A stretch of 64,000 nt of DNA from assembly GCA_934148015.1 (NCBI GenBank), contig CAKPCU010000004.1:10800-74799 (forward strand). Reading direction: 5' to 3'. The stretch is from an uncultured Bacilli bacterium (GTDB lineage Bacteria; Bacillota_I; Bacilli_A; RF39; UBA660). Each line of letters begins with the position of its first letter. The stretch's first letter is position 1. Of this stretch, positions 7,560-52,743 are shown in pieces. A program made the translations under genes and the position numbers. The notes beneath the pieces were generated by a model, which worked only from the letters and a program-made list of their open reading frames with translations, made no database searches and was not told where the DNA came from.

Positions 7560-7660
7560 CTATTAACGTTTGAATGAACTTCTTGTTCTTCAACCACACA
7601 GAAAAGGTTTAAAACATTTATATGTACCTTAATGGTGAGTCTAAGATTTTAAAAAAGGAG
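7560..7660 (+). promoter_or_regulatory. Possible L21 ribosomal-protein leader (5' UTR of rplU-prp-rpmA)
   Basis: 129-nt non-coding gap with a hairpin at 7571..7592 (TGAATGAAC..GTTCTTCA). An L21 leader is known upstream of rplU in Firmicutes, but this cannot be confirmed without a covariance model. Confidence 0.3.
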
Positions 7661-7669
7661 GAATAAAAG

Positions 7670-7969
7670 ATGAAAGCAGTTATAGAAACTGGTGGTAAAC
7701 AATACCGTGTTAGTGAAGGTTCTGTAATTTATGTTGAAAAATTAGATTGCGAAGCTGGAAAAACTTATACTTTTGATAAAGTTGTAATGGCTGATAATAA
7801 AGTTGGAACTCCATATATAAATGGTGCAACTGTTGAAGCTAAAGTTTTAAAACAAGGTAAAAATAAGAAGATAATAATCTTTAAATATTTACCTAAGAAA
7901 AGTTCTCATAAGAAACAAGGACATCGTCAACCATATACTAAGCTTGAAATTACTAAAATTAATGCTTAA
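7670..7969 (+). CDS. rplU: 50S ribosomal protein L21
   Basis: [17 protein letters not shown].. is the canonical L21 N-terminus. Strong RBS AAGGAGG. Confidence 0.95.
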
Positions 7970-7979
7970 TTGGTGATGT

Positions 7980-8282
7980 ATGATAAAAATAAAAATAAAT
8001 TATGATGATAATTTTATTAAAAGCTTTTCTATTAAAGGACATGCTAATTATGATACTATAGGAAAAGATATAGTATGTGCTTCAGTAAGTTCTATTGCTA
8101 TTTCTAGTATTAATTTAGCTTTAAGGTTTGATAAAGATTCACTTAAAGTAGTAGAAAAAGAAGGATTACTTGATGTAGAAGTTTTAAAAAAAGATAAGAT
8201 TATCAATGAAATATTTCTAAACATGGAAGATATGTTTAAGGAATTATCTCTGGATTATACAAAATACGTTAAAATTATATAG
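7980..8282 (+). CDS. prp: Ribosomal-processing cysteine protease Prp (YsxB family)
   Basis: [19 protein letters not shown] contains the conserved His and Cys. Located between rplU and rpmA. Confidence 0.9.
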
Positions 8283-8296
8283 AGGAGGTGCTTTTA

Positions 8297-8578
8297 ATGT
8301 TAAAGTTAAACATCCAATTATTTGCACACGTTAAGGCGCAAGGTTCAACTCATAACGGACGTGATAGTGAAGGTAGAAGATTAGGTGCTAAAGCTGCTGA
8401 TGGAGAATTAATAAGTGCTGGATCTATTATCTATCGTCAAAGAGGAACTAAGATTTATCCTGGAACAAACGTTGGTATGGGTAAGGATCACACATTATTC
8501 GCTAAAATTACTGGGTATGTTAAATTTGAACGCCTAGGAAGAGATAAAAAGCAAGTTAGTGTATATGAAGCTAAATAA
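8297..8578 (+). CDS. rpmA: 50S ribosomal protein L27 with N-terminal Prp-cleavable propeptide
   Basis: [10 protein letters not shown]|[25 protein letters not shown] 8297 lies 8 nt after GGAGG; the ORF-track GTG 8288 is inside the RBS. Confidence 0.95.
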
Positions 8579-51688: not shown

Positions 51689-51766
51689 ATTGTTGTAAAA
51701 AGTATATTAATAGAATAAATTTTATGATATAATATTATCGTAAGTTGAATAGAAAGGGTGTTATAT

Positions 51767-51994
51767 ATGGCAGAAGCAAAAAAAAATACTAGTTCAAAAA
51801 CTAAAAAGGTAAAAAGTACCAATCCAGTTGGAAGACCAAGAAAGAAACACGGTGCAGAAACGCTTTTAAGCAATAAAGATTCATTCAAGTTAAAAAAAGA
51901 TACTGTGTTTGATAGTGTTATTGATGCACTTATTTTATCTGTTATAATACTTGCAGAAGTATGTTTAATTGTTTATATGTTTGTTAATAAATAA
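51767..51994 (+). CDS. Small basic protein with AT-hook-like GRPRKK and C-terminal TM helix
   Basis: ATG 51767 follows AAAGGGTG. 75 aa. Confidence 0.45.
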   Translation: MAEAKKNTSSKTKKVKSTNPVGRPRKKHGAETLLSNKDSFKLKKDTVFDSVIDALILSVIILAEVCLIVYMFVNK

Positions 51995-52041: not shown

Positions 52042-52521
52042 ATGATTATAGATTTAACTAAGTTATTTAATAGTAATTTGTATAAAATAGATGTAAATGG
52101 TAAGATAGATGTAGATACATCACTTTTTAAGAATACTGATATCATTAGAATGTCTACGTTAGATGTTAGCGGGTTTATATCTTATGATGAAGAACTTCTT
52201 ATGTTAAATGTTAATGTTAAGGGTGATATGACTCTTCCTTGTAGTCGTACTTTAAAGGAAGTTAAAGTACCTATTAATATAGATATTGAAGAAGAAATAG
52301 ATGAAAATAATGAAAAAGTAGTAGAAATTGTGCAAAATAGGGTTGATATTTTTCCAATTATATGGCAATATATATTAATGGATATTCCTTTAAGAGTTCT
52401 TGCACCTGATGCACAAAATTCTATAAATGGTGGAGAAGGATGGCGTCTTATAGAAGAAGAGGACGATGAAAAGGAAGAAATTGATCCAAGGCTCATGGCT
52501 TTAAGTAAATTTAAAGAGTAA
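52042..52521 (+). CDS. yceD: YceD/DUF177 family protein
   Basis: Acidic ~160-aa protein with a CSRTL motif. Canonical position upstream of rpmF. Confidence 0.8.
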   Translation: MIIDLTKLFNSNLYKIDVNGKIDVDTSLFKNTDIIRMSTLDVSGFISYDEELLMLNVNVKGDMTLPCSRTLKEVKVPINIDIEEEIDENNEKVVEIVQNRVDIFPIIWQYILMDIPLRVLAPDAQNSINGGEGWRLIEEEDDEKEEIDPRLMALSKFKE

Positions 52522-52536
52522 GGAAGGAGTGATACT

Positions 52537-52743
52537 ATGTTAAAGTTAGATATACAATTATTTGCAGTTCCATTTAGAAAAGTAAGTAAGACTAGAAAAA
52601 GAATGCGTCGTACTCACTATAAAATAGAAGCAAATGGTACAGTTAAATGTCCAAAATGTGGTGAAGCTATAAGACCACATAGAGTATGCCCAAAATGTGG
52701 TAATTACAAAGGAAAAGAAGTAATAAAGAAAGAAGAAGCTTAA
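52537..52743 (+). CDS. rpmF: 50S ribosomal protein L32 with an N-terminal L27-type propeptide
   Basis: [10 protein letters not shown] + [35 protein letters not shown] 52537 lies 7 nt after AAGGAG, and there is no alternative start before AVPFRK. Confidence 0.93.

Follow-up and report, generated by a model that had tools for sequence, protein, structure and literature searches.

A Prp-type leader peptide on ribosomal protein bL32 of uncultured gut Bacilli and its predicted removal by the cysteine protease Prp

Prp has so far been regarded as a single-purpose protease of ribosomal protein L27 that phages have borrowed for their own use, and efforts are under way to exploit it as a target for antibiotics. 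The enzyme of Staphylococcus aureus, whose catalytic residues are His22, Asp31 and Cys34 (PMC9405229), cleaves the 11-mer KLNLQFF/ASKK (here and below a slash marks the cleavage site or the equivalent junction), and the peptide Ac-KLNLQFF is bound in the crystal; positions P1 to P3 are the main determinants, and mutation of the P3 Gln abolishes cleavage (PMC9261936). In Streptococcus pneumoniae, the change of the P1 Phe to Ala abolishes the binding of Prp, and the protease still cuts an L27 in which a SUMO domain has been placed before the leader (PMC12324487). Since both the 11-mer and the SUMO-fused L27 are cut, a short motif suffices for Prp. Escherichia coli has no Prp (PMC9405229).

Leaders of this type are also found on proteins other than L27. 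The capsid and scaffold proteins of phage 80alpha are documented substrates of Prp, as a preliminary description of the DNA studied here had stated, and the major tail protein of phi13 has a Prp-type leader; in the view of Christie and Dokland, Prp is associated with large complexes that assemble themselves, and proteins might be linked through the leader to a chaperone that they share (PMC5744158). For the cell itself, FlhB, whose N-terminus mimics the L27 leader, has been proposed from sequence alone as a second substrate (PMC9405229). No further cellular candidate was found in the literature: the 2022 review of Prp names L27 and the capsid and scaffold proteins of 80alpha as substrates, with FlhB as a proposed one, and bL32 is counted there merely as a protein lining the tunnel (PMC9405229). 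In a full-text literature search, with the primary papers of Wall et al. outside its scope, L32 was found neither as a substrate of Prp nor as a carrier of its leader, in agreement with the initial impression that no Prp-type propeptide had been described on this protein. A precedent of a different kind is provided by the mitochondrial orthologue bL32m, which must lose an N-terminal extension before ribosome assembly (PMC5438985; 2026 preprint). In yeast, this extension is 71 residues long and doubles as a targeting sequence, and it is cut by an ATP-dependent AAA protease (m-AAA), which is brought to a stop by the folded zinc domain rather than by a motif (PMC5438985).

Here, we report on a stretch of 64,000 nucleotides, hereafter the window, from an uncultured Bacilli bacterium, in which the genes for Prp, L27 and L32 are all present on the plus strand. 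The rplU-prp-rpmA operon spans positions 7670-8578 and is preceded by an L21 leader RNA at 7582-7652 (Rfam RF00559, 50 bits against a gathering score of 36). Its first gene, rplU, encodes L21 (7670-7969; PF00829, E = 1.9e-38) and is followed by prp (ysxB; 7980-8282; PF04327, E = 4e-20), which encodes a cysteine protease of 100 residues, the proposed processing enzyme, and lies between rplU and rpmA. Aligned to structure 2IDL, the window Prp retains the His, Asp and Cys of the family in the segments GHA and D.VCASVS, which correspond to His22, Asp31 and Cys34 of the S. aureus enzyme; the protein therefore shows the profile, the His/Cys dyad and the position between rplU and rpmA that define the Prp proteases (PF04327, MEROPS C108). 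Among the matches listed, prp lies directly upstream of the L27 gene in all 31 related loci for which upstream DNA was available. The rpmA gene starts at ATG 8297, 8 nt past GAGGAGG, and its product begins MLKLNIQLF/AHVKAQ, the propeptide being encoded by codons 1-9 (8297-8323), with position 1 of the PF01016 model falling on residue 10, and the predicted mature bL27 with its stop codon by 8324-8578, as delimited by the Pfam L27 model and by comparison with homologues. The mature L27 of this lineage has a sequence of its own, AHVKAQGST, at its start in 116 of 120 homologues (8324-8350 in the window), so that the tail reaching the peptidyl-transferase centre has Val for the first Lys and Ala-Gln for Gly-x; in other bacteria, the mature protein begins AHKK or ASKK (review table, PMC9405229).

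The rpmF gene occupies 52537-52743 and follows yceD (DUF177; 52042-52521; PF02620, E = 1.4e-16), its usual upstream partner, which precedes the L32 gene in 68 related loci among the matches listed. A Shine-Dalgarno (SD) sequence, AAGGAG (52524-52529), is separated by a 7-nt spacer from ATG 52537. Codons 1-9 (52537-52563) encode MLKLDIQLF, positions P9 to P1, with the predicted cut after Phe9, and lie ahead of position 1 of the Pfam L32 model; 52564-52740 encode the predicted mature bL32, AVPFRK...KKEEA, with its zinc ribbon CPKC...CPKC, and the stop codon is at 52741-52743. The match to PF01783 (Ribosomal_L32p) covers the full model (89.6 bits against a cut-off of 21.3), model positions 1-56 corresponding to residues 10-65, and both pairs of zinc-ribbon cysteines are intact in the translation (residues 38-41 and 51-54). 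Therefore, both L32 and L27 carry nine extra N-terminal residues, as the two Pfam models begin at residue 10. Direct reading of the sequence thus bore out what the preliminary description had said of the coordinates of rpmF, of its leader and ribosome-binding site and of the lack of an alternative start, and the same applies to the related leader that it had placed on rpmA at 8297 and to the prp gene at 7980-8282, with its domain match and intact catalytic residues. The remaining genes of the window, among them those for Obg, PolC, RNase J and FtsY, are those of an ordinary chromosome. Two further features were observed upstream of rpmF. An ORF of 78 residues between ylxM and yceD (51758-51994, plus strand) encodes a protein that is very basic in its N-terminal half, has a hydrophobic segment towards the C-terminus and finds no match in Pfam, and ylxM is present in the window without ffh after it. 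In Firmicutes, ffh often comes after ylxM.

The leader of L32 resembles that of L27 at precisely the positions on which Prp depends. It stands at the extreme N-terminus, is nine residues long and ends in Phe followed by Ala, and its core, KLDIQLF, conforms to the recognition motif K-L-x-[LI]-Q-x-F, in which Gln at P3 and Phe at P1 are required; P2' and P3' of the predicted cut are Val-Pro. A wider search among L32 sequences, as the preliminary description had suggested, recovered the leader on 115 of the 120 nearest L32 clusters at 90% identity, in the form [ML]-K-L-[DN]-I-Q-[LM]-F followed by AVPFRK, to be compared with [LM]-K-L-[NQ]-I-Q-L-F/AHVKAQGS in 120 L27 homologues of the lineage. Leu at P6, Ile at P4, Gln at P3, Phe at P1 and Ala at P1' are common to the two leaders and invariant or nearly so. 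Furthermore, a degenerate DNA pattern of the shared motif has exactly two matches in the window, both at gene starts, and none in 100 shuffles, and a six-frame scan for the peptide motif retrieves only two real ORFs, L27 and L32.

We consider it probable, from these features of the sequence, that L32 is made as a precursor with a Prp-type leader of nine residues and is then cut by Prp between Phe9 and Ala10. Prp, encoded 44 kb upstream of rpmF, would bind P7 to P1 (KLDIQLF) of pre-L32 and cut it at that bond, releasing AVPFRK..., and it would likewise process L27 at MLKLNIQLF/AHVK; in this lineage, Prp probably matures two ribosomal proteins. The preliminary description had, with caution, spoken of L32 as a possible second substrate. 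That another protease removes the leader, either in place of Prp or as a redundant partner of it, appears unlikely to us, although Prp need not be the sole enzyme, given that in S. pneumoniae the deletion of prp is viable because L27 is cleaved by another protease (PMC12324487; 2026 preprint). Against such an enzyme stand the fit of the L32 motif to the Prp consensus at every determinant position, the presence of an intact prp in the window and the fact that the data point to no other candidate.

Cleavage by Prp at F9/A10 is also predicted to give the canonical mature N-terminus of the carrier. The product, AVPFRK..., coincides with the start of the Pfam L32 model, and 30 out of 30 distinct solved bL32 sequences align from residue 10 or 11 of the query, at residues 1-5 of their chains; no Prp-type leader is found among these 30. 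The solved chains of B. subtilis begin AVPFRR, which confirms the early assertion that L32 of this type starts directly with (M)AVPFR, and, with the Pfam boundary and the structures, the expectation that an F/A cut would yield the usual L32 terminus has held. The lineage itself offers a second line of comparison, because 5 of the 120 nearest L32 clusters begin MAVPFRK. Three of these short clusters were checked in the DNA and all are truly short, each having its own SD sequence and an in-frame stop upstream, immediately so in one and five codons off in the other two, and their mature regions are 85-89% identical to those of the leader-bearing forms. When the short form, ...RGVKM/AVPF, is set against the long one, ...RGVTMMKLDIQLF/AVPF, the leader resembles a clean insertion of eight codons after the start codon; judged by this alignment, it looks like an eight-codon cassette placed between Met1 and Ala2. 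The existence of such truly short L32 proteins in close relatives means that the leader has repeatedly been acquired or lost and that, over evolutionary time, it is dispensable.

These relatives bear directly on the possibility that the extension is translated and kept, as a permanent structural extension of the mature L32 N-terminus. Translation of the leader is well supported, and in Thermus and Deinococcus the bL32 chains align from residue 4-5 and so have a few extra N-terminal residues, both of which would suit a retained extension; nevertheless, we hold this explanation to be improbable for several reasons. The conserved positions are exactly those by which Prp recognizes the leaders of L27 and of phage proteins, a tail binding rRNA would be basic and the L32 leader is instead hydrophobic, and a retained extension on bL32m blocks the assembly of the mitoribosome. 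The leader comes and goes among close relatives while mature L32 is unchanged, which speaks against its having a structural function in mature ribosomes and fits a leader that is removed.

Translation of the leader was examined across species by scanning one genome per species with a pattern that matches both L27 and L32 genes, which gave at least 120 matches. Among the matches listed, 74 are L32 genes with the leader, 34 are long L27 genes and 12 are phage-like or chance matches; the leader on L32 is thus present in the genomes of at least 74 species. An SD-like motif precedes the extended in-frame start in 74 of the 74 L32 loci listed, and the leader measures 8-9 residues. Synonymous codons vary in these leaders (AAA/AAG, GAT/GAC, ATT/ATC/ATA, TTT/TTC, GCT/GCA) while the residues remain constant. 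The scanning pattern itself fixed several leader positions, but the set of nearest L32 clusters, found by homology and free of this bias, gives the same logo. It is very hard to see the leader as an annotation artefact, with a translation start at Ala10 or close to it, preceded by an untranslated stretch: the sole point in favour of this idea, that standard L32 proteins begin MAVPF, is opposed by the lack of any in-frame ATG, GTG or TTG from 52537 to the Ala10 codon at 52564, by the SD sequence 7 nt before ATG 52537 and the lack of an SD-like sequence within the leader, by the constancy of its residues in at least 74 species despite synonymous codon changes, and by the true short forms, which differ in having a stop 0-5 codons upstream and an SD sequence of their own. 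This account is effectively refuted. We conclude that L32 is translated from ATG 52537 as a precursor bearing MLKLDIQLF, which reproduces the portable module that Prp recognizes, and that, as far as genomic comparison can tell, the leader is a conserved, translated feature under selection and no artefact of start-codon choice.

Some leaders look degenerate. One of them reads MKLNITLF/GALPFRR, with both Gln at P3 and Ala at P1' lost, and in two clusters the P1 Phe is replaced by Leu. Such leaders may be in decay or resistant to cleavage, and, where P1 is encoded by TTG, this codon could serve as an alternative start.

The carriers of the leader are uncultured gut and rumen metagenome-assembled genomes (MAGs) labelled as Bacilli, Tenericutes or Mollicutes bacterium, together with others under the names Mycoplasma sp. 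CAG:877 and CAG:956, Clostridium sp. CAG:594 and CAG:628, Candidatus Fimihabitans and Candidatus Caccenecus, which we take to belong to the small-genome RF39-like Bacilli. Lineage-typical L32 or L27 genes also occur in MAGs labelled Muribaculaceae, Ignavibacteriales, Paratractidigestivibacter or Agathobacter, in which contigs have probably been mis-binned or assemblies mislabelled. In the best 150 representative clusters at 50% identity, 11 have a Prp-like leader, in every case KL[DN][IL]Q[LM]F on an L32 of the AVP[FA][RH][KR] type; the other apparent extensions in these clusters were set aside as over-called starts ending in ...M/AVPK. A scan of metagenomes with a pattern unbiased as to codons and allowing Leu or Phe at P4 retrieved, among the 120 matches listed, 18 L32 genes, the other 102 being noise; these 18 lie on contigs of 24-39% GC and belong to the THLKKE or THYKIS subtypes. 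Altogether, the leader is found on at least three divergent L32 subtypes, all from one low-GC gut group. No L32 leader was found outside this lineage in the best 150 clusters or in the metagenome matches listed, and none in the clusters and listed matches stands on an L32 of the Bacillus, Clostridium or Fusobacterium type.

The search for other carriers had different outcomes in cells and in viruses. In about 0.96 Mb of related DNA, no third cellular protein with a Prp-type leader was found; only L27, L32 and a few phage-like ORFs have one. On 82 viral contigs of IMG/VR, the motif KL[DN]IQxFA is present, nearly always at most a few residues from the N-terminus of a phage ORF. The ORFs are unrelated and range from 130 to more than 900 residues, and they appear to include tail-sized as well as capsid- and scaffold-like proteins; it seems that phages employ Prp-type leaders far more widely than the staphylococcal cases would indicate.

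Although the leaders of L32 and L27 share the determinants of recognition, they differ in a consistent manner, which argues against ongoing gene conversion between them. Among the matches listed from the species scan, P5 is Asp in 55 of 74 L32 leaders and Asn in 30 of 34 L27 leaders, and P2 is Met in 39 of 74 L32 leaders as opposed to Leu in all 34 of L27. P4 is mostly Ile and sometimes Leu in L32 (Leu in 7 of 74 L32 leaders against 0 of 34 L27 leaders among the matches listed), and for this reason co-variation of the two leaders is not demonstrated. One subgroup has Leu at P4, KLDLQLF/AVPARRVSKTAKRARRTHLKKE; it counts Clostridium sp. CAG:628 among its members and is frequent in metagenomes of the human gut. 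In two cases, the window and the assembly CAKPIS01, both the L27 and the L32 gene of one genome were obtained, and the Prp of the latter is 99% identical to that of the window, which makes CAKPIS01 essentially the same species. Being consistent and substrate-specific, the differences between the leaders may reflect different kinetics of cleavage.

At the nucleotide level, the first 30 nt of rpmF and rpmA are identical at 27 positions, as had been counted at the outset, yet this figure is of little weight: 24.5 of 30 are expected from the residues and the codon usage of the window, whose GC content is 25.6%. As evidence of recent copying, the nucleotide identity was rejected on this comparison of 27 observed with 24.5 expected. 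The regions upstream of the two leaders are unrelated and, with most of the identity already predicted, the signal lies in the peptide and not in the DNA. A recent and functionless accident, by which the 5' end of rpmA was converted or duplicated onto rpmF in one genome, can appeal to the 27 identical nucleotides but is contradicted by the distribution across species, at least 74 of them and at least three divergent L32 subtypes, as well as by the expected identity, the unrelated upstream regions and the consistent differences between the leaders, and can be given practically no credence.

Among the described systems, that of Prp and L27 is the closest. The two share an N-terminal leader of 8-9 residues with the sequence L-x-[IL]-Q-x-F/A and Ala at P1', a protease gene between rplU and rpmA, and a predicted product that has the canonical N-terminus of a large-subunit protein. 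They differ in the substrate, since bL32 joins beside uL22 before uL2 whereas bL27 acts at the peptidyl-transferase centre, and in the polymorphism of the L32 leader among close relatives. As in the phages and in SaPI elements, the same portable leader is found on unrelated proteins that build large assemblies (PMC5744158), but there the carriers are proteins of mobile elements, whereas L32 is one of the core ribosomal proteins of the cell. L32 has in common with FlhB that it is a cellular protein other than L27 with an L27-like leader and that its status as a substrate comes from sequence; unlike FlhB, a membrane protein of flagellar export, it is ribosomal and belongs to the same assembly pathway as L27. 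Lastly, bL32m is an orthologous protein that is also made with an N-terminal extension, and this extension has to be removed, as is predicted for the L32 leader. However, a sequence motif defines the latter, which is only 9 residues long, and this sets it apart from the bL32m processed by m-AAA; the resemblance is one of analogy only, with no common descent.

In the proposed scheme, two proteins of the large subunit, bL32 beside uL22 and the late-binding bL27, would depend on one protease. bL27 binds late in assembly. bL32 adjoins uL22, and both need to be in place before uL2 binds (PMC11723945); nothing was found in the literature on the position of the bL32 N-terminus, including work on L32 with troleandomycin. 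Given the position of bL32 and the precedent of bL32m, the leader would probably block or delay the insertion of L32 until Prp acts. It might, for example, prevent the basic N-terminal tail of L32 from entering the rRNA before assembly or, alternatively, hold this tail on Prp, which would then act as a chaperone until assembly; in either case, two steps of 50S assembly might be placed under one protease. The remarks of Christie and Dokland on self-assembling complexes and a shared chaperone agree with such a function (PMC5744158). Taking all these elements jointly, we incline, with slightly more confidence than doubt, to the view that Prp has gained a second essential ribosomal substrate in small-genome gut Bacilli, that 50S assembly would be gated twice, at bL32 and at bL27, that the leader behaves as a Met1/Ala2 cassette repeatedly gained or lost, and that the system converges on the processing requirement of bL32m.

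As read from the genomes, what is new is a second ribosomal carrier of the known Prp leader, restricted to one lineage and polymorphic within it. Should L32 be cut as predicted, a second ribosomal substrate would widen the cellular repertoire of Prp, and this would be a natural demonstration of a Prp leader moved onto core cellular proteins, a leader that any protein with Ala at the start of its mature form could receive; it would also be the first bacterial case of protease-dependent maturation of bL32. Near-identical L32 proteins with and without the leader form a natural set for comparing its possible functions as a chaperone handle, as an assembly checkpoint or as a protection of the basic tail. 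The echo of bL32m processing suggests that the N-terminus of bL32 is a generally sensitive point in the assembly of the large subunit.
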